From: Cyanidioschyzon merolae
Lineage: Eukaryota
Direction: 5' to 3' (one strand)
Length of the DNA stretch: 64,000 bases
Assembly (NCBI GenBank): GCA_000091205.1
Contig: AP006501.2
Under the pieces are notes generated by a model, which worked only from the letters and a program-made list of their open reading frames with translations, did not search any database and was not told the origin of the DNA. Of the stretch, positions 302 to 51,250 are shown one piece after another. The position numbers were made by a program, and so were the translations under genes. Position 1 is the stretch's first letter; every line of letters starts with the position of its first letter.

Positions 302-1755
302 CTGCGCATTCTCGAGCGCGTATGGTGAAGGAAGCGAGCTGTTGCGTGACAGCGCCTGCCGCGTACCCTACGCTGTCGCGACCCTGAGCCTTGTTCAAGT
401 CTGGAGAACGTGCGCGTCGCGAAACGAGCGGCCAGATGCAGTGCGACCTGTCGCGCTCGCAATGTCGTGCTGTGGTTATCAGCGGATATTGACGCGAATG
501 CCACGGCATTGTAGCGGCGTCTCTGTAAACCATACGGCCGCTCGTCGGCTGCAGTACGTGCTTTATTCTGCCACGGACGCGTGCTTGGTGCAAGCCAGCG
601 TGTTCTTATACAGACCAGTTCATCCACAGAACAAGGGTGATGCATGTTTCGATTTGAGTTTTGATATCGCTGACCATTGGGGGTATGCTTCCCGAAACGG
701 TCCCTGTGTCATGCAGGTTTACGCCCGCCTGACGACCCGGTGTTCGCACCGCACTGCGACCAAACGCGCGGCTCCATCAGCTTGTCTGGCATCACTCAGA
801 AGCTGGACGAGGCGGCCTGGCGGGCGCGTTCGTGGCTTGCGTCCCCGGCGCAGCTGCTCAACTAGATTGCAGCGCATGCGGGCATGCACGACGTCCGCGC
901 TCTCTTGTTACGCACACTGGGAGCCAGGTATTCGCAAGAGCTCACGCGAGTGGCGGGCGCGCTTGGTGTTTGGCGCGTAGCCGAGCGCTGCACCTATGCC
1001 CCGGGGCTTACAAAACGCATATCTGTGACCTAGCTCTGCAGCAATGCTTCTCACGGTGAGCCGCGTGGATCATAAAAAGTGTCGTTTTTGATTGCCCTGT
1101 CATCCGCGAAAGCAGCATGTTCAAAGCTTATTGAATCCTGGAAGCGACTGTTCTCGGAAACTGATGTTTCATCTCGAATCACCGGCGGCAGCGGCAGCGG
1201 TATTGCCTCGAGCCGTCACCTCGCCAACGCGTCGAAGAGCCGGTCGGCCGCAGAGCATTGAACGCGGCAACAATTGTCGTGCGAAACCAAATGCCAACGC
1301 TAGACACCGTTCAGCAGCTCTGTCTCTGGGGGGATCAACTGCGACGCGGGCGTAGCCCGAGTCACGCCACGCTTCTGGAACATGTTTGATGCCCCGAACG
1401 TCGCTAGATCGAATCAACTTGTATTCCTTCGGGAAACACATCCCGGTCGATTATGGTATGCAGATGCGTATCTGGATAGGCTGGGGTATCTTTCATTTCC
1501 TCTAGGAGCAGTTATGTATCCACGAGAAGCCTGATAAGATTCATCGATCTCACACCATGAAAAATCGACAAGCTTGGCACCCAGCAGTGCACTGTACGGA
1601 CTCTCGCTGCCCACCAAACAGGAACACTCGTCTGGGGCTTGCGGAAAATACAAGCGCCTTGTGAAGCTACAGCATTTTCCATCCGCAGGATAGGCAGCAC
1701 CTGCACATTCCACTGCGTACTCGCACTGCACGCATCGATCATGCATCATGCATCG

Positions 1756-1824
1756 TAATTCGATCGTGCATCAAGCACCATAATTCGATCGTGCATCAAG
1801 CACTATAATTCGATCGTGCATCAC
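1756..1824. repeat. 25-bp tandem repeat x3 (taattcgatcgtgcatcaagcac) in the 5' region of the CBS-domain gene
   Basis: Three consecutive near-identical 25-mers at 1756, 1781 and 1806. They are followed by (GCT)n at about 1866-1885 and (GGCT)n at about 1945-1972. Confidence 0.85.
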
Positions 1825-2799
1825 CAGTGCCTACGCATCTGGCACTGCCGCATTCTTTCCATGATAGGCGCTGCTGCTGCTGCTGCTGCATGCGTGAGGC
1901 ATCCGGTGAACGCCTGCGGGCATGCGTGCCGATCTGCCAATGGAATCTGTGGCTGGCTGGCTGGCTGGCTGGTGCTGCTGCGCACGCGCGCTTTCACCCA
2001 ATTGTTTACACCACGGTGCCGAGCATTGGTGTCACCCAGCGGTATGCGCAGTCTCCAGCGTCTCTTGCCAGTTTGGCGTCAAAAGAGCGCGGTAGAATCG
2101 GTGGTTATCGCTCCACTAGTGCAATGGAGAAGACGCTTGGCTGCTCTAGCGATGCTGGAGCGCGAGTTACCCCAGTACCTAGACCTGGACTCGTGGCAAA
2201 TGACGCTGGCACAGTTCATTCAGAGCCAGCCACGAAGAGCGTACACCATATCGCCCGAGTCGACGGTATTCGAAGCTGTACAGAAAATGGTAGCGCACAA
2301 CGTTGGTGCTGTCGCGGTGGTGGAACCGGACGCAAACGATGCCGCACGACAGGCACAGCGGCTCGTTGGCATCTTCACGGAACGCGACTACTTGCGGAAA
2401 ATTATTGTTGCCTCGAAGGCATCGAAAACAACCCCCATAGCTGAGGTCATGACCCAAGACCCGGTATGCGTAACGCCGCAGCAACGAGTCGGTGACGCGC
2501 TTCACCTCATGACGGAGCTCGATATACGACATCTGCCCGTACTGGAGAGCCTGCCGAACGGCTCCCTGCTGACGATGGTTTCCATGCGCCAACTCATGCG
2601 CGAGGTAGCGGCTAGTCACGAGAAACAGGTCTCTGCGCTGATGGCACAGCTGCGGAAACTCTCGCTCCTCGTGGTCGACGATCGCTCTCCCGGGGACGGA
2701 GCAGCGACACTGGGTCCGGCGTCATCGACGACACCGAACACGAGGACGATCCACACGGGATCGGATCGCTTGAGCCTGAAATCCTGGTGGCAGCGCTGA
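1816..2799 (+). CDS. CBS-domain pair protein (CBSX-like); probably organelle-targeted
   Basis: Two CBS motifs: 'ISPESTVFEAVQKMVAHNVGAVAVVE...LVGIFTERDYLRKI' and 'VTPQQRVGDALHLMTELDIRHLPVL'. The track start is GTG. In-frame ATGs lie at 1861 and 2044, and 2044 gives 'MRSLQRLLPVWRQKS', which looks like a presequence. The start is uncertain. Confidence 0.7.
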   Translation: MHHQCLRIWHCRILSMIGAAAAAAACVRHPVNACGHACRSANGICGWLAGWLVLLRTRAFTQLFTPRCRALVSPSGMRSLQRLLPVWRQKSAVESVVIAPLVQWRRRLAALAMLERELPQYLDLDSWQMTLAQFIQSQPRRAYTISPESTVFEAVQKMVAHNVGAVAVVEPDANDAARQAQRLVGIFTERDYLRKIIVASKASKTTPIAEVMTQDPVCVTPQQRVGDALHLMTELDIRHLPVLESLPNGSLLTMVSMRQLMREVAASHEKQVSALMAQLRKLSLLVVDDRSPGDGAATLGPASSTTPNTRTIHTGSDRLSLKSWWQR

Positions 2800-3292
2800 A
2801 CGCTTGAGCGCTTCACGTGCAACGGACGGGAATCGTTCCGGGCACGCGCTGCTGAGTGGAGGTCTCGTCCAGCAGGTGACGCACGGTACCAGTGCGCCGA
2901 GGTGGCGCTCGCAAAGCCACGTATAAAAAAACTTTCCCCGTACTCGACGCAGTATATGCTTTACGGCGACTCAGATTCGCAAATGTTGGCTCGTAGTCGT
3001 ACGCATTGCCAAACAAGTCCGCGGATACAAAACTACCCAGAGTACATGAAGCATCCACGCGCAGCGCCTGCTCGCACGGGATGCTCGTACGGTGGCGAAA
3101 GCGGATACCCGCGCTGCGTTGACATGTGCCCGACAACCGGTGAACCAGCGAACGCTGTTCGCGAAAAACAAAAGTGATGGCAAGTGTGGTATTCCAAGGA
3201 CGCGCTGAGGACAGTATTCGGGTTTCGAGCACATCCTAGTGACCAGGGTGCAGTGCATTGAGGCCCCTGCACGAGCCAATCACTGACAAGTC

Positions 3293-10460: not shown

Positions 10461-10790
10461 TTGTGCGTATTTTCGACTGATCATCGTTCACGCTCTGTAG
10501 CGAGGCCAGATACTGCGTACCAGAGTGCACCCACCAGCTGTTCGAGCGGAACATCGCTTGCAGCTGGGGGCCGGGCGTATTTTCGACTGATCATCGTTCA
10601 CGCTCTGTAGCGAGGCCAGATACTGCGTACCAGAGTGCATCCACCAGCTGTTCGAGCGGAACATCGCTTGCAGCTGGGGGCCGGGCGTATTTTCGACTGA
10701 TCATCGTTCACGCTCTGTAGCGAGGCCAGATACTGCGTACCAGAGTGCATCCATCAGCTGTTCGAGCGGAATATCGCTTGCAGTTGGCTT
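10461..10790. repeat. 110-bp minisatellite, 3 tandem copies
   Basis: 'tttcgactgatcatcgttcacgctctgtagcgaggccagatactgcgtaccagagtgca' recurs at 10471, 10581 and 10691. Copies 2 and 3 are nearly identical; copy 1 differs at its 5' edge. The overlapping ORFs on both strands are repeat artefacts. Confidence 0.9.
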
Positions 10791-11451
10791 CGGTTGATAC
10801 ACTCTGCGAATCCGCAAAACGAATGGGAATCATGGCATGGAACTGGAGCGCCATCACCAGGCAAGAGTACTCGACGCATCGTTCCGGATCACGGGAATCG
10901 GCGTGTGTTTCACGGTAACGCAGCGCTAGATTGATGATGAGCTACCCAGTGAGCTTGCCGTGAATCGCGAATACGAACGTGAATCTCCAGGGACGATTTA
11001 CGAGACCGATGGACGGTCTCACAGATTCAATCGTTTTCGCCAATAAGATACTCCAGTAATTTTCTGGACTTTTTCTCCGAAGCAGCGCTCGAGCGGCAGC
11101 ACGAAAATGACCAGCTTCACAGCTGCCATCCGCGAGGCCTATCCTTCACTCTGCTTCACACACGAACGCGCATGTGCATCGTATTGATCACACATCCGCA
11201 TATTAGCGCGAAAGTCATTCCCCAGTTCATGGTAAACAACCTGTTGCCGATATCATCCGCATGGTATCCGCTGCTGTTGCTGGCGGTGTCGCAACCGCCG
11301 CCGCCGCCGTTGCGCCCGGCGTGTCTGCCGACGACAATGCGACACCGCCAGCGCGGCGCTTGCCTTAAAAGGGCGCATCCCCCGAGGCCTCAGTAGCACG
11401 CTCCTGTGTTTCAGTGCTTTCCGTGTCAAGAAGCGTTTCTGCATCGGCTCC

Positions 11452-21114: not shown

Positions 21115-22261
21115 ATGGATTCGGGACCAAGCAGTTAAATGGCACAACTTGCCTAGCGAGGCGTCCAGCGTTTCGTGCCAGAGACGGTGTAGGCGGTGCT
21201 CGTGCTCGTTACCTGCAATCACAGGTTTCGGATCAAGTGCAAGCGGTGGACGCTGGACCAGCGAGGCGTGGCGTTTACGTCATTTCCATGTGCCGACGCT
21301 GCGTGATACGAAAAAAACAACAGCATCGCCAGATGGTGCGCGTTTTTGGCGCGAGATAAGGCTCTTCCCCGGAACGCAAATCCTATTTCTCACAGGGCAT
21401 CTCCGCAGCTGGTGCCGATTCGAAGAGACCTTCATCCGCCAGCAGCCAAGGGTGCCGAATCGCGACTCCAAAACCCCCTGCTGGGTATTAAGTCGTCGGC
21501 GCCTCGCTGGACGCCTCATGTGCGCATCCGTTTCAGACTGCCTCCCGATGCCGAGCACGTGTCAGCGCGCATGCCACACGGAGCTGGCTTGCCTCTATCG
21601 GAACCAAGAAGTCGACTGCGACGGTCGCATACGGTCGAGGTGCATCTGGCAATCTTCTCGTTGGCGCATTGCCCGAGAAGCGGCTGAGAAGCACCGCCAC
21701 GAACGTCAACGAGGTCTTCCACTTGATTCTGGTTCTCGTTGCAGTGCGCGCATGCCACTATGGAGACAAGAGAACCGGCCCTTGCTTCCAGAGGGAATCC
21801 GCATAAGGTTTGCTGCTTTGGTGCAGCGTCATCTCAAACGCTCACGAATACGCTTTCTCAACGGGGTAATCGGGGATGAGGATCCTAGATACCGCCTGAT
21901 CTCCGGGCCGAGGTTCGCATACCTCGAGCGATTCCTGGAGCTGCCGCTCTGCTTGTAGGCACAGTGCGAGGCAAGCTGCTGCCATGATAAACGTAATCCC
22001 GATAGGTAGTGCCGCCGGATATGACCCTAAACGAAGTGTGTGTCTTTGTGGGTGCGCGGAGATTGGGCTACTCGTTTGTTGAAGCGGATGCGTGTCAACC
22101 AGCATGGATGCAGTTCCATCGGTGTGAGCTGGAGTGTGCAAAACACCGCATAGCCATTCCGTATCCATACAGCAGTAGCAGCAGCAGCAGCAGCAGCAAT
22201 CGTCAGTGAAAGAAAAAACTGTTTTTACGAACACGGACGGTAAATGAATATCAATATATGG

Positions 22262-22720
22262 ACGCCTCCTAGCCGTTTTCGACCGGCCCCCTGTTATCGG
22301 TTCCAGTGTATCCGCTGTACACCACGAGCCTGAGAGGTTGTGCGATAAAGTTAGATCACGTCAGCTCTGCGGCTCTCGTCTCCAGCACAGCATACTGCCT
22401 GATACTGGTAACAGCGTTGAATTCTCGGTTCACGAGCTCCTTGGGTTTATTGCCTCTGGTTGAACACATCCGTGCATGGATCACTAGATCTCGTACCCTC
22501 TGTGCCACTTAAGTCTAGCCTACTTCCCTCTTCTTCTTCATATCACTCGCTCTTCTTCGCTCGATAGTTGGAGCGAAGCGAATTTTTGTCGTTGTTTTCC
22601 GGCACCCGGCGAGGAAGGCACTCCAGGAGCCCCGACGCTCACGTTCATACCTCTGTATTTTTATTTCGTTACATGAACGCACTTTGAACACACCTGCTCG
22701 ATACCACGAAAAAGCACATT
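22262..22720 (-). mobile_element. Mariner-like element remnant, copy 1 (3' end only: transposase C-terminal coding plus 3' flank); transposase sense is the minus strand
   Basis: Block-wise nucleotide homology of about 70% to 33975-34300 (in reverse complement) and to 49965-50450. Sense-strand translation gives 'VAQRVRDLVIH...ELVNREFNAVT', which matches the mariner C-terminal region (HTARAVRDTL...SPDLAPSDYHLF). The copy is truncated on the transposase N-terminal side, before the ferrochelatase gene. Confidence 0.5.
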
Positions 22721-22962
22721 CTTCCACGCACCTGAGGCTCAATCATAATCGGAATGAAAGATGCTATGCAGCGCTCATATCCCGCTTTACGTATGAAACG
22801 TTGCCCGTCGTAACGCGGGCTGTACGATGAGGGCGCTCGACGCGGGGCACACGCGTCAGGCGCGTGCAGCACCATCGTGAACAGTTAGGGTTTGGCTGTT
22901 TTCGCTGACGTACCATACGAGAACGTTTGGGATCAGAGGCTTGACTTGGCCTAGACTTTGGC

Positions 22963-32949: not shown

Positions 32950-34300
32950 TCCCAGTTGCTGTGTATATTCGGCGGTCGAAACAAATATGAAATGAACACC
33001 ATGGATCGTTGACGAATTGCCTGAAGGATATCTACACATCTTTACTGAACAATGCAAAGAGGGCTGCATTCCTCCTTCGGATTCGTCACACCACAGTACT
33101 CTGATGGTTGACGAGCACAGAAAGAAACAAGTAGATGCGCTGCATGCCAAAACCCGGTATTCACAAAGACTGTTTGCGGTCAATGGGAGACAACGACCTG
33201 TTGTTCACCTTACGGGAGATGAAAGCGACAATAGTAGCCACCATGGGCGTCTCTGTTTCTCGACAGCTCATTCGTATGGTCTCGAAAACACTGGGATACA
33301 ATCGCAAAAAAAGAGTCCTTGTTCAACCACGGCCATTTTCCACCGAAATCGCAACCACAACAAAGATCCTGAAAAGTCACTACCGGTATGAAGCAGAGGG
33401 ACGTGGGTTTGTTTTTTTTCCAGTCGGTGAAACTTCCTTCGGACGAAACGATCGGTGCGTATATGGGTATTCAGGGGCGATGGGCGCCCGGTCTACGTAC
33501 GATCGAAGTCGAAGAGAACGAGGATAACATCGTCTGCTCTAGCTGCAATGGATTCATTTGGTGGCCACAGTTTCGTTCGCAGAGAAGCCACATACCATAG
33601 CACCCTTTTCGTCGATTCATTGAAGACTGTTCTTCGACGCCTCACGGGGTCCTTCTATTAAGCAACCTAGTGTTTGACCATTCCAGTGGCGTTCCAGCTT
33701 TTGCGGATTCTATCTGGTAATATAGCTGCTTTTCATTTCTCCGCACACTCTGTGGTTCATGCCCATCGAAGCACCGTAAGCTGTCTTATAACGTAATGAT
33801 CGCTCCACTGGGCGAATCACTGATGCGTTTAGTACACGGTAACACTCCGAGGCACGTGCTGTCTTTGTTTCGCAAACCCTTCTCCTTCCGGGAAGGTCCT
33901 CGTCCAAGGGCATAGAGAACTGCGTTTATTTCGAAGAAATAAGAAACCTGAGGGGCGAGCTGAGGTGTGCGCACTTTACCAGGTCGCGTTTGAGAAACCC
34001 CAGCGCAGCGCTTTGGCGATAGAAACGCACGCGGAGCTGGCGGAGCACCAAATGGCACAGAGGGCACGCGTTCGAGGACTCCCTGCATTGGTGACTTCAA
34101 CCAGTGGTAATACATGGAAGGAGTTCTTGAACTGAGACTTCAACGCTGCAATTAATAGCAGAAGATATGCGATACTGAAGATGAAACCCACGGAGCTGAC
34201 GTGATCCAGCTTTGTGGAGCAGCATCTCAAGGTCGAATTGCATCAGGAGAAGTTGATGCCAGTGGTAGGTGGCCAGTCAAAAAACGCTGGGAGGCGTCTA
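32950..34300 (+). mobile_element. Mariner-like (Tc1/mariner superfamily) element, copy 2, degenerate; the transposase reading is broken into at least 3 frames on the plus strand
   Basis: N-terminus 'MVDEHRKKQ'. HTH 'ATMGVSVSRQLIRMVSKTLGY' (compare mariner 'LEVSQQAVSNRLREMGK'). DDE-N region 'RIWVFRGDGRPVYVRSKSKRTRI...DSFGGHSFV' (compare 'DEKWIFF..PKRKKSYV...KHGGGSVMV'). The C-terminal module at 33975-34300 is homologous to copies 1 and 3. Boundaries are approximate and TIRs were not resolved. Confidence 0.6.
33135..33661 (+). pseudogene. Frameshifted mariner-like transposase (HTH plus N-terminal part of the DD(E/D) domain)
   Basis: ORFs 33135-33527, 33388-33600 and 33455-33661 overlap in three frames. 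Each carries successive transposase segments, as listed for the copy 2 mobile element. Confidence 0.55.
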
Positions 34301-34365: not shown

Positions 34366-35118
34366 ATTGGTCACTTTTCACTGTCATGAACGACAGGAAC
34401 TTTTGCGTGCCTCTTCTGTGACTGCTTCCTTTTCCTCGATCCCCGATCTGTGGATTTCAATACGCAGGTCTCGCTTGTCGATCCAGCTCCGCTATCAAAG
34501 AATTTGACGCCCAGAGTGAAGCTCCCGTCTATGCTTCGCTTGGCATTGTCGATCTCTGTGTATACAGCGTCGGTGCGACCCTCGAAGCGCTTGCTCGTCC
34601 GTATGGTCAAGTGTTCCCAGGGGTGTCCAGTGCACCTCCTCCTCCTCAGAGCGCCGTCCTGCCGAACGTTAACGCTTGCTATGTCGCTCGGTACATGCCC
34701 CTGACTGATACGGAACGCTGCCATCGGCGCCCGCACTCCGCTCCCGAGTCCGATGCCGTACCCTACGACCACGAGCTTGTTCTGGGCAACGCTCTCGGCG
34801 AGTGCGCTACCCGACGCACACGAGAGCGCTCACTGTCCCATTCAAAAACGTGTTTGTGGGAAGCGGTGTCGCTCATGGTGAATAAGCACCGAGCGGGAAA
34901 TCCAGGATACGGAACAAGTCGAGCGATATCGATCCGTCTCTGCGCTCTTCGAATAATACCTTGTCGCGTTTTTTTGCACTGGAAGCGAATGCTGCGATGG
35001 CTCAAGCCCAAGTCCGAGACCTTTCCTATGGAGAGAAAAGAGGCAGGGAGCGTCGAAGAGCGTGTCCTCTGACAGGTATGATGCTGCTCGGGATTGTCGA
35101 TTTATCGATTGCTACAAA
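34366..35118. repeat. Direct repeat A1 (about 753 bp), about 99% identical to 37585-38338
   Basis: Base-by-base comparison finds about 8 mismatches in 750 bp (for example ctatcaaag/ctgtcaaag, gttaacgc/gtgaacgc, gaataagc/gcataagc). Both copies give identical 153-aa (+) and 133-aa (-) ORFs apart from 2-3 substitutions. It contains 'gacaggtatg', a possible splice-donor-like site. Confidence 0.9.
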
Positions 35119-35703
35119 GAAGGGCGGATTTTTCAACTAGAAGGATATCCATCGTCTGACGAAACAAGTTCTGTAAACTTTCTGAACGAGCTTGTGAACA
35201 AATCGTTGAAGACGCCGTGGAGGTGTTTCCTCGACAATCCAGCAGCGCGCATAGCAGCGCGCGCGAGTTGCCTTGAAACAGAAAGATCGATGACTTGGAG
35301 AATATTTAATTGCTTCAATTTACACATCATGAATGGAGAAGACTATAGTCTTCTCCATATGCATTGCATCGCGATATCACATAAATGACAAAATTTTGTC
35401 CGAGAACGTCGCATATTGCCTTTTATTCCGATGACGTGACAAACTCCAACGACGAAGAGGCCAATGATCTACATCGAAAAGACGACCGAGAATTCCAAAT
35501 TTTCGTGCGAATCGGTAAATACCCTATTCCTACACATCGAACGTTGAGGATGTGCATCCAAAACAAGTTCGGAAAGAAACCTCAAGGCGGGAGCGAACCA
35601 TGGAGTTCAGGGCTCCACGTTCATCCAACAGAGATGCAGGCTGGGAAGCGGTTGCACCAGGTCGTCTGCAGAGCCTGCCCCATGCTCTCTTCAAATCGAA
35701 TGT

Positions 35704-37002
35704 TTAAATCGACTGACAGATACGCAGCAGCCGCACTCCGTTACCAGAAGCGAGACGCTCTAGCCGCCATAGAGTATGCGCATCGACTGCGTGGAAAACC
35801 TTGTGATCCTGGAAGTCCTTGAGTATTCGTTGTATTTCGTCGCTGTGAAACCGCGGTATTTCCTGGATCACTGGTTGCAAATTCGACGGAAGTTCCTGGT
35901 CCACCCATCGGGCAGCCTGACTGCCGTCAGGGTCCCGCTGCATTGCCGGTGTTGGTCGGTGCAGAACAGAGCCCACAACGCGAGACGCCCGCACACGTCC
36001 GAGGCCCCGAGCGCTGGTCTCCGCGCATAGCACCAGTCCACGTCGCATTCGAGCCCCGAAGCGCGTAAACATGTTCCATGCGTTCAGCGGACGAAGGCTA
36101 CGAAGCGCACTGGCATGCAAGAAACGTCCCTTTTTCTGCGGATGCCGAATGCTCGTGAGTGCATTCAACAAATTCCAATCATCGATTGCAAAGAGCACAG
36201 GAACCTGTCGGACACATTGAAGTTGGCGCAGAAAAAGCCGATAAGTCCGACCAAAGGCATCCAGGTTCAACTCGGCGAGCTCACCTTCCAGTCGGCGGCC
36301 AGATTGCAAGCAGGCATCCACCAGTCCCAACAGGTTGGTATGCTGATCAGTAGACGTGGCGGTCTGGCGCGCCACATCTCCGTCCCGCGCTTCATCATCG
36401 AGGTCACTCTCCCGAAGCAGTTGCTCCGTAGGAAGACAGGTAATGGATTCCAGCGTTCGGGCATGGACCTGGCGACACGCCTGCAGGCTGTCAAGCACCA
36501 GACGAGCCTGATCGAAGAAAAGAGGTTCGCGCAACAAGCTCGCACTCCGTGCACCTCGAGGTCGCGGTGTTAGAACCACGTCACAAGAGTCGCGTTCATG
36601 TAGCCAGTGGTACAGGTTTGGCAGATAGAACACCAGCCAGTCCTGCTCACGAGCTCGCTCGACAGCGTGAAATAGACTCGTGCTCTTCCCGGAACCTGGT
36701 GGGCCACGAAGCAGCACACATCGCGTACCTTGCCAGAGCGGATCAGATCGCTCTTGAACCAGCTTCCACACGTCTGCGTCTGCCTGACGCCAAAGCAGTT
36801 TCAGGGCAGTTTTCGTTTCTGTACTGTGCCGTTTGCTGGCGTCTGCGCCGTGGACCTCCGTCCAACGAGCGAGCACCCCTTTGGGCCAAGCCTCCGGAAC
36901 CAGACGGTGACTCAACACTCGAAACTCATTAACAACAGCTGGGGTATGATACAAACGACCAAGCAGCAGACACGTGCTGAACACTGGCCTGCAAGCCCGC
37001 AT
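35704..37002 (-). CDS. P-loop NTPase, probably mitochondrial ribosomal protein mS29 / DAP3-like
   Basis: ATG at 37002; 432 aa. Walker A 'LLRGPPGSGKSTSLFHAV' followed by 'FYLPNLYHW' (DAP3-like 'IPDAxxW') and C-terminal 'SGNGVRLLRIC' (compare DAP3 GNPRELxxLC). The N-terminus is presequence-like ('MRACRPVFSTCLLLGRLYHTP'). The family call is tentative. Confidence 0.45.
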   Translation of the reverse strand: MRACRPVFSTCLLLGRLYHTPAVVNEFRVLSHRLVPEAWPKGVLARWTEVHGADASKRHSTETKTALKLLWRQADADVWKLVQERSDPLWQGTRCVLLRGPPGSGKSTSLFHAVERAREQDWLVFYLPNLYHWLHERDSCDVVLTPRPRGARSASLLREPLFFDQARLVLDSLQACRQVHARTLESITCLPTEQLLRESDLDDEARDGDVARQTATSTDQHTNLLGLVDACLQSGRRLEGELAELNLDAFGRTYRLFLRQLQCVRQVPVLFAIDDWNLLNALTSIRHPQKKGRFLHASALRSLRPLNAWNMFTRFGARMRRGLVLCAETSARGLGRVRASRVVGSVLHRPTPAMQRDPDGSQAARWVDQELPSNLQPVIQEIPRFHSDEIQRILKDFQDHKVFHAVDAHTLWRLERLASGNGVRLLRICQSI

Positions 37003-37584: not shown

Positions 37585-38338
37585 TTGGGTCACTTTTCAC
37601 TGTCATGAACGACACGAACTTTTGCGTGCCTCTTCTGTGACTGCTTCCTTTTCCTCGATCCCCGATCTGTGGATTTCAATACGCAGGTCTCGCTTGTCGA
37701 TCCAGCTCCGCTGTCAAAGAATTTGACGCCCAGAGTGAAGCTCCCGTCTATGCTTCGCTTGGCATTGTCGATCTCTGTGTATACAGCGTCGGTGCGACCC
37801 TCGAAGCGCTTGCTCGTCCGTATGGTCAAGTGTTCCCAGGGGTGTCCAGTGCACCTCCTCCTCCTCAGAGCGCCGTCCTGCCGAACGTGAACGCTTGCTA
37901 TGTCGCTCGGTACATGCCCCTGACTGATACGGAACGCTGCCATCGGCGCCCGCACTCCGCTCCCGAGTCCGATGCCGTACCCTACGACCACGAGCTTGTT
38001 CTGGGCAACGCTCTCGGCGAGTGCGCTACCCGATGCACACGAGCGCGCTCACTGTCCCATTCAAAAACGTGTTCGTGGGAAGCGGTGTCGCTCATGGTGC
38101 ATAAGCACCGAGCGGGAAATCCAGGATACGGAACAAGTCGAGCGATATCGATCCGTCTCTGCGCTCTTCGAATAATACCTTGTCGCGTTTTTTTGCACTG
38201 GAAGCGAATGCTGCGATGGCTCAAGCCCAAGTCCGAGACCTTTCCTATGGAGAGAAAAGAGGCAGGGAGCGTCGAAGAGCGTGTCCTCTGACAGGTATGA
38301 TGCTGCTCGGGATTGTCGATTTGTCGATTGCTACAAAG
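37585..38338. repeat. Direct repeat A2 (partner of 34366-35118)
   Basis: See A1. Identity stops at '...gctacaaag' on the 3' side and '(tt)ggtcacttttcac' on the 5' side in both copies. Confidence 0.9.
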
Positions 38339-38984: not shown

Positions 38985-41900
38985 ATGAACCTGCGTAGAG
39001 CTCATAGAGAGCGCATGGCAAGGGGCATCGATCCCGTGGACGCTGGCGTCCGCTGCGGATGTCCTGCACGTGAGGCACCGGCAACGCGTTCCGTGCTGAA
39101 GCGCCAGCACAAACGTCCGTTGACGCTGAGCTGTATCATGTTCTCGGGACGGAGAGAGCGTGACCCAGCAGAACCCAGAGATCAGCTTCAAGGAGATAGC
39201 TATTATACAGAAGCCGGTAGCACGGAGCAGAACCCGCTTGTCGACCTGGACCTTGTGCGCAGTCGCCGTTTGGCGCGGTTTACCACCAAGTCGACGGCAG
39301 CGGACTCGTCGGGTGCTGTCGCTGAAACTTCTGCAACTGCTGGGCAGCACTCGAGCCGACCGGCTTGTGAGCGACCAGAGAATAAAACTGGGACTGAAGA
39401 GCGAGTCTTGCATCGGGCGGAAAGTGAAAAAGCACCGAGTGTGGAAGCGTGCCCGGCACCACAACGAAAAGCAGCCCCGGCTGTTTCTGAAAAGGAACTC
39501 GTGCACCAGAGCCTCTTGCGCATTTTGAATCTCTCGAGTGCGGAACTAGAAGAAATCTGGGCGAGAGCTGGTGTCGCTGCGTCGCAAGCGCCGACGCACC
39601 TAACCGTTGCTGAACTCGATACGGTGCTGGCGGAACGACTCCAGGATCCTCGCATCGTAGATGCGCTCTCCTACTTGATACTTTGCTACCAACGACTCCG
39701 TCAGGAGCTGGCCTCAATCCAAGCGGCTCGTTCACAGGTGTTGCGTGAGAGCCTGGGCAATGCGCTACCGCTTGTTGTGACCTATGCGCGAACATGTCTC
39801 TGGGAGCCGCACCTCTTCGTCTCAGGTCGTCGTTGGCCAGCGGAGAGCGCTCCACACGAGGCTGCCGCATTATGGCTCGTGGAGCAGTTTCAAAAACAGC
39901 AGATACCAGCAGAGGGCGATGCAGCAATCCTGCCACCAGCCATGTACGCGGACCTGGTGCACTGGTGGGCTCGCGACGCACCCGACGAACTCGAGCAACT
40001 GTTTCCAGTATTCTTTCGTGGCCTGGTGGAAAGCGCTCGTGCGGAACTGGATCAGATTTTTCTGCAGAGGTCACAGCTGTCATGTTTACGAGCTTTGGGA
40101 AGCGCGCTAGAGCCGCATGAGGCCTTGAACGCATTCGTGTCGATGGCGGATTTCGTTGCAGTGGATACCCGAAACAACGTCCGGTCGCTTCTTGGGCCAT
40201 TCCTGACACCAACAGCTCTACACTATGAGGACGATCGCGTTTCAAGGGCGCTCTTGCCGAACAACGTATCAACCGAAAGCGAGACCGCTGAGCGGGACGC
40301 GATCTCGGCTGTGCAGTGGTCTCTGGACACGCTACGCGACGGCTTGTACCGGCTCTTGATGCGACTTTTGCGCGCTGGACCGTATCCTCGTGAGCGAGTT
40401 CTCACCTGGCTGGCGAACCAGCTTAACCAGAATCGGGAAAGGATGAAACTGCAGGCCGCAACCGCAGAAACATGCACGGACGGGTACATGCTGAACCTTA
40501 CGGATGTCCTGCTGCGCCTTGCAGCGCCTTTTGCTGACCCGCGCTCCCCCAAACTGCAGTCCATTCCAATCAAATGTCTATACGATCATCATCGAATCCG
40601 CTTGGCGGAGCAGGAGACGCGCGTCGGATGCGATTATGCGGAAGCGCAGCGTCTACAAGCCGACTATTTGCAGCAGCAGCAGCAGCAGCAGGCCGGGAAT
40701 CCCTACGCATTCATTCCCGAATGTTTTTTCCTGACGACGCGTGCACTTCAGCTCACATATCTGCCATTTTTGCAGTATTATCGAGAGGAAATCTTGCATC
40801 AACTGCAGCGGCTTGAAGAGATGCGCGAGGAACTGAATCTCGCGCAACAGCAACAGCAGCAGCAACCGGTATCTTCGATGCAGCAACTGGAACAACAGCT
40901 GATGCGAAGCCAGTGTGAGCGAGCCATCGCCGGTCTCCGACGTGATCGCCAATCCTGCCTCTTCTATTTGTTCGATAGCGGCTCACTGGATCGTCTTTTG
41001 CAATTTTTAGCTGCGCTGGCGGCATACATCATGCAAATAGCAGGTTTTGCCGGACGCTTACCGCTGCCTGCTCAGGATGCGGCTTCTGTACCCCGGGAGT
41101 ACGCCTTGTTACCCGAGTCAATTTTTGAGCTGCTGGCTGAGGTGCTCCAATCGATCGTACAGCTGCGCTTGCCCGTGCCGCTGACCACGGTGGGCGCCCT
41201 CTTTCCCCAGTTTGTAGAGTTCGCTACCATGCTGCTTTCGAATACGTTCTACTTGCGGAACATACATATCCGCGCACGCTACGCTGAATGGCTCGCACAA
41301 ATGTTCCCGGCGATAGGGAACGAGCTGCGCCATGCGCTCGGAGCAGTGCATCTACCGCCCGAATTCGAGGCCGCTTTTCTCGGCAATGAACAGGTCGTTG
41401 AGAATCTGCCACCAGCTCTGATGCAGCTCTATATCGATGTGGAGCGTACTGGAACGCATACACAGTTCTTCGACAAGTTCTCGATGCGATTCTACATGAG
41501 TGAGGTACTGGTGGCCATGTGGCGGGTCCCGGCGTATGCGCGTGTGCTCCGACGCCTCGCCTCGACGCGAGAGGGACTTTTCGTACATTTCAGCAATATG
41601 CTCTTTAATGATGCCAATTTCTTGCTTGATGAGTCGTTGCAAGCCCTGGCAGAAATCCACGAACTCGAGCGGCTTCTAGAGCCGAATTCGATACAGGGTC
41701 AGGCTCTGGAGCCGCAGGCTCGCGAAGAGAAACGCAAGCGCCTGCTTCAGTTGCAGCGTCAGGCCAAGTCGTTCAACCAGCTTGCCAACAGCAGTATTCG
41801 CTTGATGGTGACGCTAACCGAGGAGGTGCGGCAGCCGTTTTTGCGACCGGAACTGCTGGATCGTCTAACGAACATGCTGAACTATTTCTTGGTGGCACTT

Positions 41901-42458
41901 TGCGGGCCGCGTTGCGAGAACCTCGTTGTTCAGGAGCGTCATCGGTACGAATGGGAACCGCGCCAGCTATTATCCCAGATCCTGCGGATTTATCTGTCGA
42001 TGCACGATCCGCTTCGGGATCGTGACGGCACCAGACGCTTCTGTTGCTCAATAGCAGCTGACGGGCGCTCGTATCGACCGGAGGTTTTCGAGCGGGCGGC
42101 GCAGATAGCTGCAACGCGGGGCCTCTTGACGCCTGCCGAGTGCCAACGATTTCACGAACTCGTCGAGTCCGTGGCGATCTGTGCTAAGGAGCTTGTTGCC
42201 GAGGATGAGGAGCTCAGCGAAGCACCCGACGAATTCCTAGATCCGATTCTGGCAACCCTGATGCAGGATCCCGTCATGTTGCCATCGAGTCGCAAAATCG
42301 TGGATCGCTCGACCATCGTGCGACATTTGTTGAGCGATCCGCACGATCCATTCAACAGACAACCGCTGAGAATAGAGGACGTGATCCCGCAACCAGCGCT
42401 CAAAGAACAGATTACGAGCTGGCTACAAGAGAGACAGGGAACGCGGCGTGTCTCGTGA
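38985..42458 (+). CDS. UFD2: Ubiquitin conjugation factor E4 (UFD2 family) with C-terminal U-box
   Basis: ATG at 38985; 1157 aa. C-terminal U-box: '[48 protein letters not shown]'. The core resembles UFD2 ('[17 protein letters not shown]', '[19 protein letters not shown]'). It contains poly-Q tracts encoded by (CAG)n. Confidence 0.85.
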
Positions 42459-42464
42459 GCGGGT

Positions 42465-42493
<29 letters not shown>
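42465..42493. repeat. (CTG)n microsatellite directly after the UFD2 stop
   Basis: ctgctgctgctgctgctgctgctgctgct. Confidence 0.9.
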
Positions 42494-42495
<2 letters not shown>

Positions 42496-43099
42496 TATAT
42501 CGGCGAGCGCGCGTACTGGACGAGATATCTGGTTTCGGGGAGCTCGCTGCCACTGCGATACACTAAGCTGATCCGACCTGCGTAAACTGACCGAGAAAAT
42601 GGAGCAACGGCACACCATGATCGTCGACAAATGGACCGGACAGATCGTCTCCGGTGTTGATACACGGCGCTCTCGTGAATCTGGATTCCTGACCTGGACC
42701 GCACGAGTGCGCTGTTCCAGGCGGGATTCCCATGCCCTCTCACCTGGCTACTGTTTTTTCTCATCGCAAGTCTTCGGCGTTTCCGTACAGTGCCCAAACG
42801 GAGTACGAAACGATGACCACGAAACTTTGCTCGATACAAAGCCAGTCGTCGCTCCAAAAGCACACGGCGATGCCGGGTATTGATCCAAGCGTCCAAGTCC
42901 GGATGCGGAAGGAGCTCGTGTGTATTGCTGCAGGTGGAATCTCGATATTGCAAGCATCTCACCTGTTATTGCCTCGCGGTGTGAGGTTCGCTCAGCTTAG
43001 CATACACCATGCGGTGCATCGTTTGGTTTCACGCGATGCCTCGCTTCCAGCCTCAGCGCGCAACGCTCCTCGAGATGTGTGTACGTCATCCTAAACGCA

Positions 43100-44745
43100 T
43101 CGATGGGAATCGAATACCATCGATGCCTGTTCTCGTTGCACACTCTAGGCGAAGGAGCTGGTGTGTTAACTTTTTTTGGGAACCGTGCGCCCTGCTCCGT
43201 ACGCTACTACGAGCCTCTGACTCTGGTCCTCCGTGAGGGCGCTCATCTGATTAAAAAAGTTGGCGAATGCAAGCCGTTTCCCTTTGCACAAGTTCAGTCG
43301 CTGACGAGCCCACCTGGGCTTTGTATACTCTTTCCGTAGCGCCTCGTCATGAGCAGCTTGAGTTCCCGTGGATTCCCGAAAAGCTTCAAAGGCCGCTTTG
43401 CGGCCCGTCAGTTTGTTCATCGCTTCCAGATGCTTCTTCATTCCTGAATTCCACGTCTCACTCTGTTTCCTTGCATTCATTATACCCGATTCTTGGTGAT
43501 ACCTCGCTCTTGAGAACTTTCAAAGACGCATGCCTTTCTGAAGTAAGTTGCCGTCGATACCATCTTTCGCACACTTGCGTGCAGCAATGGTTACGATCTT
43601 CGTGTTCTCGGGGCGAAGAGCAACGACAAATTCGTTCTCCTACGGGTTATACGTTCCAGGATCTGCCTCCTTTTTTTCTTCATGTTCCGCCAAGGGCGAC
43701 AACAAAGACGCATTAGGTCGATCCACCTTCAAGCGCCTGTAGTGAATGCATGTGGACACTCCATCGATATCGAACATCCCCGTGAATACCTTTTGCTTGC
43801 TGATTTTGAGACGTTTGAAATTGAAGATGTTCTTCCAGTACGTCTCCCGGTTTTCGCCGGTGAAGTCCTCCCTGCTAACATAGAACTCGGGACAGATCTG
43901 CTTCATGATTCCATGAAGGATTCTGGAGTCGATACTCACAAAATGTGACCTGATGTTGCACAACAGAACGATGTTGAAGCGCTTCCCCGTTAGGAAAGCC
44001 TTCCGTCTCTCCCACTCTTCATTTTTTCTCGACACGCCTCCTTTTCGGCCTTGCGTTCGAGTTCTCGATTCAAAAACACGAAATAGCGTAGCACGAGGTG
44101 ATAGCATCTTTCTTCATCTTTTATCATATCTGATCCCTGTTCTGTTGGGTTGACAAGCCCCGAGACCGCACGGTGCTCTTGAAAAGCCGCACGGATCACA
44201 GAAGCTTCATTCTTTCTCCTGGCTGATGCCTTCTTGTTGACGAATTCGATCTCCTGTTTATTCCTACAATTCTTCGTGATGCCGTTGATGATGGCCCATA
44301 TCGTTTTGCGAGAGAGGCCCGGGTAGAGTGCAAACACGGCGCGTATCACGAAACGTTCGATATTCACGATCATATGGTTCCTCGGGCTCGTGGGGTATCT
44401 CATCGCCCCGTATTCGGAAATACGCGAGTCACCCCTGTATCCAGTACCGTCGAAGCGGTATTTGGCGTGATTTTCGTGGAGGGCATGCACTCGCTCATTT
44501 TTCGTCGACGCGTCCCCTGTGCCAACCATCAGGTGACGAATAAAGTTCATGTTGAGAAACTCTTCCGAAACCTCGACTGTTTTGATGTCCGTCACGTCGT
44601 GATACATCCCCTGCACCAAATGCATCAGCCCTGAAGAAGCCTCACGAACACTCATGGAGTACGAATCGACATGGTTTCTGATGGATTCTCGCAACGTTTC
44701 CTTCTACGAGTCCTTGATAGGTCCAAGAGGACAGGCTTTCACAAC
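43100..44745 (-). other. AT-rich (about 45% GC) island with a fragmented, single-orientation ORF set (at least 490 aa across 3 frames); candidate unclassified mobile or foreign element
   Basis: Minus-strand ORFs 44703-43990 (234 aa), 44107-43640 (155 aa) and 43480-43166 (104 aa) are consecutive and overlapping and all point the same way. GC content is clearly lower than the flanks. The upper boundary at about 44745 coincides exactly with the truncation point of a mariner-family fragment. No family was recognised; motifs noted are '[21 protein letters not shown]' and 'WARQRLNLCKGKRLAFANFFNQM...QRLVVAYGAGRT'. Confidence 0.4.
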
Positions 44746-45000
44746 CATATCGTCGTGCTGTCGTCATTCTGGGAGCTTCTGACATTGGACCTCCCGATTT
44801 TGCCTCTTCCTTTTGTCTTGCACTTCTGCGCTTGGTACTTTTGTTCGTTTTTTCTTATGCGGCAGCTGGCGGCACCTGCCCTCCAGGATCCTTCATTTCC
44901 GTGTCCAGGACTTTCCTTTGCTATTTTTTTGAAAAAAAAACGCACATTGAACGCTTCTGTTATGAAACACGTAAAATCACTTGAATACACTAATGTGAAC
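44745..45000 (-). mobile_element. Mariner-like family fragment (end of the C-terminal module plus 3'-flank module), truncated at about 44745
   Basis: 'atcgtcgtgctgtcgtc...cttccttttgtcttgc...ccctccaggatccttcatttccgtgtcca...aacgcacattgaacgc' matches 50200-50440 of copy 3 block for block (including ccctccaggatcctcgacttgcatgtcca). Translated similarity 'ALQDP..CP.LS' is shared with copy 3. Confidence 0.5.
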
Positions 45001-46311
45001 GTTGAAAGACGATTGAATTGAAACACTATAATTTGCAATGACTTGAACGCAGATGCAACTTGTACGTCGAAGCGACAAGTCGACGAACGGTCAGGATCGC
45101 GTTACATTTCAACGGCGACATGCGTGTCGCGTCTCGTGAAGGCCTGATCTCCCAGGTGCGCATATCGAACCTACTATATAGAATAAAGAGCAGAGACTCT
45201 AGATTCACCCGCAAATATGAATAGCCATATTTCTTTCCCCTCTACGATACACGTTAAACGCGGGAAAAGTTTCTTTATTGCGGATAGTTTGCTTCATAGG
45301 CGATGGGTCCCGCGAACCGGACGAGTCTGTCGAGGATGTGCTTCATGCGACTCTGCAGTACCGAGCGCTGTAGTGAGACCCCAGCAGCTCGTCGGCAACG
45401 CAGTCTATTCTGGGACTAGGGCCAGTTAGGCTGCGTCTGTGCGTCACCCTGGTCGCGGTGGACTCCTAGTATATCGCTTCGCGCTGCCACAGGAAGTACG
45501 CCAGTCCGCGCGGGTTTCAGGCTCCTAGAATGATAATGTATACCGATTCCATGTTGAATGAACCACGCCTCGGGCCGATGCTCCCAGTTGTATGGCAAAG
45601 CCGTTGCGTCCCCGGGCAGCATCTGCTTCAGCGGTATGCAAGCGCTACAGTGGGTGCTCGAAGCAGGCACTCGGCGCACCAAAGAACATACGAAACAACC
45701 AGTATATCCGAGAGGAATTATCGGTAATGGAACTTGAAGGTATGGTGCGGAATGATGGACACAATCTCGATTACCAATGTCCGTCGTGCAATCTGGGATT
45801 CACGGACAATGGAAACCTCATCGAAAAATTCACCAGTGAGATCAACACTCGGGCGATCGTGCGCGCCATTGCCAGTGGCGGACACCGGATCGCACATGCG
45901 CAAACAGATACCCATATACTTATGGAGGATCGTAACTTGCTCAATTTCTATCCAGGTACTTATATATACATAAATATATAATATGGCACACCATTGGAAA
46001 TCGAATCGAAAGCGGGAACGGCCGCGGGATCCATGCGCCGATGCGCCAGGCGTACGGGCGCACGACCCGCAAGGACATCGATGCATGCGCATCGCGCGAC
46101 CGTGATGCCGCGTTTGCCGCTTCCCAGATGCGCCGTCTGCGGAATCTTTCCCTGCACAGATGCGCTCGTGTACGCCGATGATGCACCTCCACCGTGATCC
46201 AAAAACATGTGATATGCAACGTTTTTTTTCGTTGTTGTTCTGCGAACGATACGTTCACTCCTATTCGAAGAAAAAGTCACTTGAATCAATCGATCTGAAA
46301 GCGATTCAACA

Positions 46312-48168
46312 ATGTCCAGGGAAGAGCGCGATGGATCAGCGGGTTTCGTGGAGCATGCTGCGACAGCAGCGCGTTCCCCTGACCCACCGTACGTCGGCAG
46401 AGAGCCGCTGCCCAGTGCTGCAGAACGAACCAATGCGGACGGTGCGTGCGATGAATTCGTACTTCCGATATCTCCAGAGGTGCCTGGTGGCGACCCCGAG
46501 CAGCCGACGACTGGCTTGACACCGTCGGAGCCTAGTGCGTCGCTCTCGGAGAAGCGGGAACCCTCGGCGGACTTTGGCCCTCGAAAGGGTGAGTCGCGTC
46601 GGGACTATTTGCGGCGCGAGTTCCAACAGCTTCGCTCCTACATCGTCGTCACATCGGCATATCTCCTATTTTCCCTGACCGATGGGGGCATTCGAATGAT
46701 CGTGCTGCTGTACTCGATTTTCCTGGGATTCTCCGCATTCGCAACAGCGCTCATGTTCTCGGCATACGAACTTGCTGGGGTGTCGACGAATATCATTGCC
46801 GGCATGATCGGGTCGGCTTGGGGAATTCGAGCCCCGCTACTGATTGGACTCGGGTTCCAGCTCCTCGGACTGGTCATGCTTTTCGTGTGGCAGGCAGACA
46901 ACCAGCATCTGCTTGGGGTGCGAGGCGCGGTCTACGTTGCGGCCGCTCAGGTGCTGAGCGGTGCCGCCAAGGACATGGTGAAACTCTCCGGCAAGTCCAT
47001 ATCTCGGCTCGTGACCCCGGAATCGAAACAAACGCGCCTCTTTCGTCTGGTAGGGTTCATCACTGGCTTTAAGAATACGTTCAAAGGCCTCGGGTACATC
47101 ATGGGTGCATCGATCGTGTTTGTTTCCTACTATGCCGCACTTGGTGTGATGGTCGGGATCGTTCTCATCGTCGCTGTGATCGTTTGGTTCGGGCTGGACT
47201 GGGAGACTGGGCGTATACCGCACGACTATGTCTCGCTGAGGCGCATGCTCACTGTGAATCACAACGTTGGTTTTCTCTGTCTCGCGCGGATATTTCTCTT
47301 CGGTGTACGTGATCTGTGGCTCGAAGTTCCGATACTGTACTTCCTCCAGAACCAAAAGTATGGGTTCTCCTGGCCGGACTATGCCGTGGGTCTGTTTGTT
47401 GGCCTCTACACGGTACAGTACGGTCAGATACAGAGCTGGGCGCCGCAGTACTTGCTTCGGCCGCTCGGACAGATGCCGTCCAATCGTTATACGCTTCTGT
47501 TCTGGAACATACTTCTTTTGCCGGTGGTTGTCTTTATGGCTGCCTTTATTCAATGGTCCCCGACATTTGCCAATCATGATGTGAATGGCATGATTGGGTT
47601 CGTGATTGTGACGGTGTTCGCGTTCTCGTTCGTTTTCGCCGTGAATTCGTCAGCGCATAGTTACATGATCGTCAAGTACACGTCCGGCGACAAGGTCGCC
47701 ATGACAGTAGGTTTTTACTACATGACCAACGCTATTGGCCGCTTCATTGGTACCTTTTTCGGTGGACTGCTCTATACCTACGTCAGTTCCGACAAAGTCG
47801 AAAGTCTGGCTGCATGTTTCTGGACATCGGTCGGATTCATTCTGGCAGCTGAGGTCTTTACCTATTTCCTTCATGATAATGTTGGCGGATTCCGATGCGG
47901 CCCCTGTTTCGCGTACGCCGTGGATGCAGAAGACTCGGAGGTCAGTCGGAGCAAGGTTGATCTCATCGAGGGCAAACCCGCATCATCATTCTTGGATTCA
48001 GATACTCACATGAACAACAAGCTCGAGAAAGCCGAGCTCAGTCCAGCATATCAGGGCAACCAGTTCGCCGGCGTGCCGCGCACAGCGTACAGCACTGGCA
48101 GCGAAGAGACGCAAGCTGAAATACCAGGATCCCAGATCCGGAACGAACGTGACCGAAATGAGCGCTAG
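46312..48168 (+). CDS. Polytopic membrane transporter, MFS-like (about 12 TM)
   Basis: ATG at 46312; 618 aa. After a 100-aa hydrophilic N-terminus there are many hydrophobic helices: 'IVVTSAYLLFSLTDGGIRMIVLLYSIFLGFS', 'IIAGMIGSAWGIRAPLLIGLGFQLLGLVMLFVW', 'FVIVTVFAFSFVFAVNSSAHSYMIV', 'TNAIGRFIGTFFGGLLYTY'. The family was not pinned down. Confidence 0.5.
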   Translation: MSREERDGSAGFVEHAATAARSPDPPYVGREPLPSAAERTNADGACDEFVLPISPEVPGGDPEQPTTGLTPSEPSASLSEKREPSADFGPRKGESRRDYLRREFQQLRSYIVVTSAYLLFSLTDGGIRMIVLLYSIFLGFSAFATALMFSAYELAGVSTNIIAGMIGSAWGIRAPLLIGLGFQLLGLVMLFVWQADNQHLLGVRGAVYVAAAQVLSGAAKDMVKLSGKSISRLVTPESKQTRLFRLVGFITGFKNTFKGLGYIMGASIVFVSYYAALGVMVGIVLIVAVIVWFGLDWETGRIPHDYVSLRRMLTVNHNVGFLCLARIFLFGVRDLWLEVPILYFLQNQKYGFSWPDYAVGLFVGLYTVQYGQIQSWAPQYLLRPLGQMPSNRYTLLFWNILLLPVVVFMAAFIQWSPTFANHDVNGMIGFVIVTVFAFSFVFAVNSSAHSYMIVKYTSGDKVAMTVGFYYMTNAIGRFIGTFFGGLLYTYVSSDKVESLAACFWTSVGFILAAEVFTYFLHDNVGGFRCGPCFAYAVDAEDSEVSRSKVDLIEGKPASSFLDSDTHMNNKLEKAELSPAYQGNQFAGVPRTAYSTGSEETQAEIPGSQIRNERDRNER

Positions 48169-49964: not shown

Positions 49965-51250
49965 ATATCTTGCAGCTTTTTGCTGGCCGGCCATCAGCAA
50001 CCGGTTTCAGTGTAGCCAGACATGCTTCGAGCCTGAGAGGCTGCCCCATAAAGTTAGATAGCCTCAGCTCCGCGGGTCTCGTCCTGGGCACCGCGCATCC
50101 CCTGATATCGATGGTGGCAAGGAAGTCACGGTTCACGAACTCCATGCAGGCACTGCCGCTGGTTGAACGCACCTCTGCAAGGAGTCCCCGAACTCGTATC
50201 TTCTGTGCCACTACAATCTCGTCATCGTGCTGTCGGGCAAACACATTTTTTGTCATCTATAGCTTCTCTTCTTTTCCTGTTTTGCTGCTTGCGCCTCTTC
50301 GCTCAATGGTTGGCGAGAAGGGAATTTTTATTGGCTTTTTTTTGTCGAACCCGGCGATGACGGCCCTCCAGGATCCTCGACTTGCATGTCCATACCTCTC
50401 ACATGGATTTGTTATCTTTGATAATGAACGCAATTCTTTGTGCCCTTAGGTGAGAACCTTCTCTGAGGGTGAAGGACCTGCGGTGGAAAGTCGACATTTA
50501 CCCTGGTGTCACTGTGTGCTGAACGCTTCAGCGATTCGCCAAACGGTGCGGTCATTACGTTTCAGGATGGAAAACACTCCTTCGACAGGGATGAACTTTC
50601 GTGAGCACGGAGATATGATAAACAGATCTGTCACGATAGAATCGCCAAGAGCTCGAACGCAAAGGTAAGAGCAATCGTTCCGTTGTTCAATAGAAGGACG
50701 GCGCCGGACGTCAGCGAAAAGTCTTCGATGATTCGACAAAGTGGCTGGTGCTGTTTTACGAGCCCCCTCTGCACGAACGAACCTGTGGCCGCGAACTGAA
50801 TCCACTGCAGCTAGAACAGATGATGATATCCTCATTCTCGTTCAGTTCGATAGCACATACAACGGGCTCTCTCTAAGTACATACCCATGGACGCCCCCAC
50901 CGTTTCGTCCGAAACAAGTCTTATTGACCGAAAGAACGGACCGACGTTCCTGTACTTTATATCGATCGCTGGGTTTCAGGAATACTGCAGTAGCTGCACT
51001 TTCGGAGGACGAAGGCCGTGCGTGAACTCGGGCTCTTCTTTGGCAACAGTATCCCAGTGTTTTCAGGATCACCGGAACAAGCTGTTGAGGAACAGAGACC
51101 CCTGTGGCACCTACTGTATTTGCTTTTGCATCCCTTAAGGCGGCAAACGGGTCGTATGCTATCATGTACCTCAACCATTCTTCGAGAACATCAGTTTTTA
51201 TTATGGAGCGCATCTCCTTCTGTCTATCCCAGTGTTCCTCAACCATCTGA
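49965..51250 (-). mobile_element. Mariner-like element, copy 3, degenerate; transposase on the minus strand
   Basis: Minus-strand ORFs: 'MVEEHWDRQKEMRSIIKTDVLEEWLRYM...ATGVSVPQQLVPVILKTLGY' (N-terminus plus HTH), '...RISSSVLAAVDSVRGHRFVRAEG' (DDE-N), and C-terminal 'IVVAQKIRVRGLLAEV...SACMEFVNRDFLATI' (compare mariner 'TARAVRDTLE...SPDLAPSDYHLFAS'). Nucleotide homology to copy 2 runs at about 75% over more than 1 kb. It lies directly upstream of Rpn6. Confidence 0.6.
50509..51246 (-). pseudogene. Frameshifted mariner-like transposase (N-terminal HTH plus DDE-N part)
   Basis: ORFs 51246-50842 and 50835-50509 are on different frames. They align at protein level with the copy 2 fragments (for example GVSV..QL...V.KTLGY and SFGRN...V.GY). 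Confidence 0.55.

Follow-up and report, generated by a model that had tools for sequence, protein, structure and literature searches.

The 64,000-nucleotide stretch of Cyanidioschyzon merolae contig AP006501.2 (assembly GCA_000091205.1) analyzed here, referred to throughout as the window, carries two annotated genes that bracket the region of interest. The open reading frame (ORF) at 38985-42458 is an exact match to the C. merolae 10D protein BAM82688, ubiquitin conjugation factor E4 B, and that at 46312-48168 is an exact match to BAM82689, an MFS-type transporter. The two proteins come from one record of 1.28 Mb under consecutive accession numbers, so that the 3.85 kb between them is without an annotated protein-coding gene. 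Inside this interval, a first-pass annotation made from the bare sequence had singled out positions 43100-44745 as an AT-rich island and a candidate unclassified mobile or foreign gene. This region is almost certainly the middle of a copy of CMe-1A, a Fanzor1 repeat family of C. merolae, that is old, fixed and no longer functional. The suspicion of a mobile-element gene was thus well founded, whereas the description "unclassified" was not: the locus is an ordinary transposon relic of an already known family, named as Fanzor1 in 2013, and not a new kind of gene.

CMe-1A is the sole Fanzor1 family listed for C. merolae by Bao & Jurka (2013, Mobile DNA 4:12, PMC3627910). These authors describe a 3169-bp consensus and, by their count, about 150 copies, each about 80% identical to it. 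They report no terminal inverted repeats (TIRs), target site duplications (TSDs) that could not be determined, and an encoded Fanzor1 protein, CMe-1, of 734 aa. The 5′ 635 bp of the element are 95% identical to a separate repeat, TE-N2_CMe (their section 12). Using the consensus DNA and the CMe-1 protein from the supplementary files of that paper (DNA from file 2), we found by local alignment that consensus 1-3011 corresponds to window 45823-42807 on the minus strand, with 80.3% identity over 2978 aligned bases. By blastn, consensus 13-2678 corresponds to window 45816-43132 (minus strand, 81.6% identity over 2692 columns, E = 0). At the protein level, tblastn against the window matched CMe-1 aa 18-294 at 68.6%, aa 294-578 at 70.9% and aa 577-657 at 32% identity. 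Coverage by family proteins runs from 44853 down to 42777, the lower end being reached by distant intact homologs. Taken together, the consensus alignment and the tblastn coverage place the flagged 1.6 kb in the middle of a typical 3-kb CMe-1A copy, which is laid out as follows.

42807-45823, minus strand: near full-length decayed CMe-1A copy, between the E4B ubiquitin-ligase gene and the MFS transporter gene
45186-45823, minus strand: 5′ module (consensus 1-635), 80.9% identity to the consensus
44909-45185, minus strand: AT-rich leader (consensus 636-905), 80.7% identity to the consensus, 41.5% GC
42777-44908, minus strand: Fanzor1 (CMe-1) pseudogene (consensus coding sequence 906-3110, 734 aa), from tblastn; includes ORF1-ORF3
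44694-43990, minus strand: ORF1, 234 aa, from the ORF listing
44107-43640, minus strand: ORF2, 155 aa, from the ORF listing
43480-43166, minus strand: ORF3, 104 aa, from the ORF listing

The copy shares with the CMe-1A/CMe-1 reference its species and its layout, namely a TE-N2_CMe-like 5′ module, an AT-rich leader and a single Fanzor1 ORF. Its 80% identity over 3.0 kb is the divergence usual for copies of the family. No TIRs pairing the element ends at 42807 and 45823 were found, in agreement with their absence as a family trait. It differs from the consensus in an unrecognizable last ~160 bp, in a 330-bp 3′ stretch of 60% identity and in its destroyed ORF. When the frames were joined conceptually into a repaired protein of 631 aa for use in searches, this sequence matched 79 database proteins, the best of which (P0001) gave E = 7.6e-200 at 58% identity, a signal that is therefore far beyond chance.

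These results account for most of what had been observed in the flagged interval. The three minus-strand ORFs are present with the lengths given, and the proposal that they are pieces of one protein of 500 or more residues, interrupted by frameshifts, is borne out, as all three belong to a single decayed gene. Their reported overlap holds only for ORF1 and ORF2, which share 43990-44107 in different frames; this implies one frameshift, at the A-run near 44030. ORF2 and ORF3 lie in the same frame without overlap, separated by a 160-bp gap and by the in-frame stops TAG 43642 and TGA 43522. Short introns, the other explanation offered for the breaks, are not needed, since stops and small indels relative to the consensus explain every one of them. 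The interval itself covers the middle of the element, but the gene passes both of its ends, and protein remnants in other frames continue beyond the flagged start (IPIDAFRMTYTH at ~43107 and PDLDAWINT at ~42905). Likewise, the dip in GC content is real but smaller than claimed: 49.6% for 43100-44745, against 55.6% for the whole window and 55-57% for the flanking genes, in place of about 45% against 58-60%. This lowered GC is a property of the CMe-1A element and its decay and not a sign of recent foreign origin.

The two sequence motifs that had drawn attention are likewise genuine and conserved in the CMe-1 family. In the consensus, the quoted 21-residue segment reads VFTGMIETDGVAMCVHYRRLK and QRLVVAYGAGRT reads QRLVVAYGAGRW. 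The latter motif is the conserved Fanzor1 AYG strand, and a 13-residue segment just upstream of it is the mutated RuvC-I DPG motif. The tentative TnpB/Fanzor assignment and the suggested likeness to a RuvC-I region were therefore correct, and a reader with only the letters at hand can recognize the RuvC-I/AYG region of a Fanzor.

Decay and age of the CMe-1A copy

With respect to coding capacity, the window was projected codon by codon onto the consensus coding sequence (906-3110). The following departures from the consensus, together with the one intact strand, were located by this projection or, for the frameshifts, from alignment indels.

44766, minus strand: in-frame stop TGA, consensus-frame projection
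44706, minus strand: in-frame stop TAG, consensus-frame projection
43642, minus strand: in-frame stop TAG, consensus-frame projection
43522, minus strand: in-frame stop TGA, consensus-frame projection
near 44857, minus strand: frameshift, +4, alignment indels
44028-44031, minus strand: frameshift, net -1, in an A-run, splitting ORF1 from ORF2; alignment indels and frames
43177-43187, minus strand: frameshift, net +1, alignment indels
43598-43621, minus strand: RuvC-I motif, consensus GADPGNTN, here ALRPENTK, catalytic Asp replaced by Arg
43187-43210, minus strand: Fanzor1 strand VVAYGAGR, intact (the QRLVVAYGAGRT of the first-pass annotation)
43084-43107, minus strand: catalytic Glu motif, consensus PVDEFRTS, here PIDAFRMT, Glu replaced by Ala
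42885-42905, minus strand: RuvC-III motif, consensus NRDFNAA, here HPDLDAW, Asp kept, context degraded
42807-43131, minus strand: diverged 3′ part, 60% identity to the consensus versus 83.5% in the rest of the coding sequence

Three of the four in-frame stops fall within the span 43640-44768, and at least three robust frameshifts interrupt the Fanzor1 pseudogene, with several more in its diverged 3′ part. The RuvC triad is not intact, as two of the three catalytic residues are lost and only the third, an Asp, remains; the copy is therefore the relic of a Fanzor1 member and not a working one. Relative to the consensus, the substitution frequencies at the three codon positions are 0.199, 0.183 and 0.218, and 243 of the 322 changed codons are non-synonymous. 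Such near-equal substitution across codon positions is the signature of neutral decay after insertion.

In terms of its 3′ end, the last 158 nt of the consensus (3012-3169) comprise a GC-rich hairpin followed by a T-run. This segment was undetectable immediately downstream of the copy (42440-42806), where its local alignment score of 22 lies within the range of shuffled sequences (mean 20.3, maximum 33). RNA folding of the consensus 3′ 258 nt outperformed shuffles (z = -2.93), but the matching window region showed no such excess (z = +0.81), and a search of Rfam matched no family anywhere in the window. The copy is truncated or degraded at this end. Given the broken ORF, the two lost catalytic residues, the neutral substitutions and the degraded 3′ end, in which a guide RNA would have been encoded, it is without plausible function.

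In each of four environmental contigs of C. merolae, L002-L005, this site is occupied by the same dead copy, which is ~99% identical, and the insertion is accordingly old and fixed. An empty site, sought in related strains as a means of defining the ends and any target duplication, was not encountered, as all four of these long contigs are occupied. The flanking intergenic DNA of the contigs is conserved to the same degree (98-99%), as are the genes.

The Fanzor1 clade around CMe-1

The identification of the family as Fanzor1 draws on its 2013 description and on structure prediction, a check that had been suggested for the protein of the flagged island and that was carried out here on an intact relative, P0049, and not on the pseudogene. 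The AlphaFold model of P0049, built from a 15-sequence alignment (pLDDT 82.9, pTM 0.75), matched the Fanzor1 structures SpuFz1, GtFz1 and PpFz1 (PDB 8GKH, 9CEU-9CF1) over essentially its whole length, with TM-scores of 0.62/0.70 and E = 7e-17 to 6e-16 (about 1e-16). The top seven PDB fold matches are all Fanzor1. Structures of Cas12f are the next best and much weaker, with E = 1e-5 to 3e-4 and TM-scores of ~0.2-0.3. The naming of the family in 2013 (PMC3627910) and the fold match of the P0049 model thus both indicate that the CMe-1 clade is Fanzor1.

Residues D398 (in DPG), E569 (in DEF) and D636 (in RD) of P0049 are invariant in the alignment of 15 intact homologs, and the three match the RuvC triad of Fanzor1; E569 is the counterpart of the conserved E536 of Bao & Jurka (PMC3627910). 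Also invariant are A534, Y535 and G536, and the Gly of the AYG strand (G500) is described by the same authors as extremely conserved in Fanzor1. Motifs common to the intact relatives are DPG(R/N)xNI, VVAYG, VDEFRT[ST] and NRDxNAAxNI, and their order, Asp (DPG), Gly strand (AYG), Glu (DEF/Y-R-T-S) and Asp (RD-x-NAA), is that of SpuFz1, GtFz1 and PpFz1. A profile search of 1.84 billion representative proteins returned 5378 clusters at E <= 1e-3, so the family is large.

Several differences from the characterized enzymes accompany these likenesses. The CMe-1 clade is only 11-16% identical in sequence to SpuFz1, GtFz1 and PpFz1, and it has 0-3 Cys at the position expected for the TNB zinc finger. 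Moreover, these three are characterized nucleases, which the CMe-1 clade resembles in fold and motif order, and the window copy is inactive. Bacterial TnpB (IS200/IS605, IS607) and Cas12f share with the clade a RuvC-type nuclease core; unlike them, the clade has a eukaryotic host, a long N-terminal helical REC-like region and no TnpA partner.

Sequence-only searches gave no link to named families. Pfam-A, another of the suggested checks, provided no family assignment, with no significant match for the three ORFs, the repaired 631-aa protein or six intact homologs; the only sub-threshold hits were noise (DUF5550, LodA_N and a 12-bit match to Cas12f1-like_TNB). PDB sequence searches, with a single sequence and with a 16-sequence profile, returned no match, and many homologs of the repaired protein carry only the precomputed label PF26935/DUF8286.

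Characterized Fanzor1 proteins are omega-RNA-guided DNA endonucleases that recognize a short target-adjacent motif (TAM) and cleave through the RuvC site (PMC11423790). While the family was active, the single ORF of CMe-1A encoded a Fanzor1 protein, a eukaryotic TnpB-type nuclease with an Asp, Glu, Asp RuvC site. In characterized members, Fanzor1 binds an omega-RNA that is produced by transcription of the element's 3′ end, and it cuts DNA beside a short motif; this activity is presumed to favor the persistence or spread of the element. From its family membership and fold, CMe-1 would be expected to act likewise, with an RNA from the structured 3′ end of its element.

The homologs P0001-P0078 lie outside the window. 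Intact relatives occur in environmental contigs with CMe-1-like elements (as at L001, 9675-12399). One of these relatives, P0001, is 752 aa in length, has an intact D/E/D triad and carries a ~77-nt coding segment (consensus 2117-2195) three times in tandem.

Neighboring repeats and rival explanations

The first-pass annotation had placed the island at a truncated mariner-family element at 44745-45000, at the point where homology to other copies was said to stop, and had read it as a foreign or mobile gene that was inserted into, or truncated together with, that element. We regard this as very unlikely. Positions 44745-45000 align instead with CMe-1A consensus ~830-1070 and represent the AT-rich leader (which overlaps the upper part of the supposed fragment) followed by the opening of the Fanzor ORF, with its start codon and ~55 codons; in this region MKDPGGQVPPAAA matches EVEDPGGPVSPAAG of CMe-1. 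On either side of 44745 the copy keeps its ~80% identity to the consensus without interruption, hence no junction exists there, and the element runs a further 820 bp upstream as its known 5′ module. A direct blastn of 44500-45300 and of 42700-43200 against the rest of the window found no other copy. The relation to other fragments in the window is visible only through the consensus, a search with which located three of them. Two adjoin a further repeat of ~850 bp.

22261-22759, minus strand: Fanzor fragment, ~70% identical to CMe-1A, consensus search
33957-34299, plus strand: Fanzor fragment, ~70% identical to CMe-1A, consensus search
49975-50435, minus strand: Fanzor fragment, ~70% identical to CMe-1A, consensus search
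33085-33937, plus strand: ~850-bp repeat, copy 1, 69% identity to copy 2
51265-50415, minus strand: ~850-bp repeat, copy 2, 69% identity to copy 1

Of a related Fanzor gene, nothing is left in the three fragments but the beginning (consensus ~793-969) and the C-terminal part (~2739-3082), and they resemble derivatives of a second Fanzor subfamily with internal deletions. The absence of the central ORF from these copies is the probable reason why homology seemed to end at the island. The ~850-bp repeat lies directly upstream of two of the three, and its frames, by eye, loosely resemble an IS630/Tc1-mariner transposase. Nesting with a mariner also has a precedent, since Mariner-Fanzor1 composites have been described in other species (PMC3627910). 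In one of these, PUl-1 of Pythium ultimum, the Fanzor1 ORF is a passenger in a DNA transposon that encodes a mariner transposase and has TIRs of 24 bp as well as TA duplications; no such feature was found for the window copy or is shown for the neighboring repeats. The resemblance of the ~850-bp repeat to a transposase found no support on testing. Pfam found no transposase match in its ORFs or repaired translations, tblastn with the PUl-1 mariner transposase gave E = 0.39, and a database search with the module recovered only its own orthologue and one weak match. Finally, hhalign returned a probability of 2.4%.

A functional host or domesticated gene, its frame restored by splicing, programmed frameshifting or readthrough, might be proposed from the length of the ORF fragments and from the near identity of the locus in the environmental contigs. 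The intergenic DNA around it is conserved equally, however, and the conservation is therefore put down to very close kinship rather than to selection. A full-length product would require the bypass of four stops and several frameshifts, only to yield a protein whose catalytic Asp and Glu are replaced and whose codon positions have changed at equal rates, and no gene is annotated between BAM82688 and BAM82689. C. merolae has very few introns, which counts against repair by splicing. We rejected such repair because, on comparison with the consensus, single-base substitutions or indels of 1-4 bp account for each break. Altogether, this explanation is exceedingly improbable. The chance that the protein represents a new, undescribed nuclease or transposase family, such as a DDE transposase or a novel TnpB-like lineage, is smaller still and practically nil. 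The empty Pfam-A and PDB sequence searches, which extend to the intact homologs, and the bare DUF8286 label are what one would expect of such a family, but the proposal is refuted because the locus matches a named Fanzor1 family, CMe-1A/CMe-1, directly in both nucleotide and protein sequence, and by the full-length fold match to solved Fanzor1 structures. A DDE transposase, which had been mentioned as an alternative, found no support.

Some observations nonetheless sit less comfortably with a CMe-1A (Fanzor1) relic. The 3′ 330 bp, at 60% identity, are far more diverged than the rest, which may stem from a 3′ end of another subfamily or from faster local decay. No sequence-only method ties the clade to named families, the link being provided by the 2013 paper and the fold comparison. 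In addition, the Fanzor/TnpB motif as first defined includes a C4 zinc finger that is absent here: between the [TS][TS] and RD motifs of Bao & Jurka, 0-3 Cys were counted in CMe-1 and 14 relatives. Degeneracy of the zinc finger extends throughout the CMe-1 clade, though the original authors place this clade in Fanzor1. The nuclease activity and omega-RNA mechanism presumed for the CMe-1 family, for their part, draw on homology. We found no evidence that contradicts the CMe-1A identification.

Significance for annotation and for the Fanzor1 family

Other repeats are present in the window as well. A 751-bp direct repeat (34369-35119 and 37588-38338, 98.9% identity) flanks a 432-aa minus-strand ORF at 35704-37002, which corresponds to a DAP3-family gene in environmental contig L002; the pair looks like a recent local duplication and not a long terminal repeat pair. 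Three tandem copies of a 110-nt unit, 92-99% identical, occupy 10465-10794, and a (CTG/CAG)n triplet run, probably trivial, lies at 42466-42495, just past the E4B stop codon.

For the genome itself, the stretch between BAM82688 and BAM82689 is to be masked as a CMe-1A (Fanzor1) relic and not carried forward as a candidate gene, and beyond annotation its significance is small. With respect to the family, the DUF8286 label and the empty Pfam and PDB sequence searches show that routine domain annotation still misses this Fanzor1 clade, which is revealed only by the 2013 consensus or by a fold search. Intact relatives lacking the zinc finger, such as P0001, are possible though rather doubtful candidates for active RNA-guided nucleases of an unusual kind. 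A broader proposal, likewise rather doubtful, is that CMe-1-type Fanzor genes of C. merolae may be modular cargo that became joined to differing 5′ modules. The 5′ module is the TE-N2_CMe-like 635 bp in CMe-1A and an uncharacterized ~850-bp module in the ~70%-related, internally deleted copies at 33085-34300 and 51265-49975. If the ~850-bp module did prove to be a decayed transposase, it would provide a mobilizing partner for this so-far unclassified Fanzor family.

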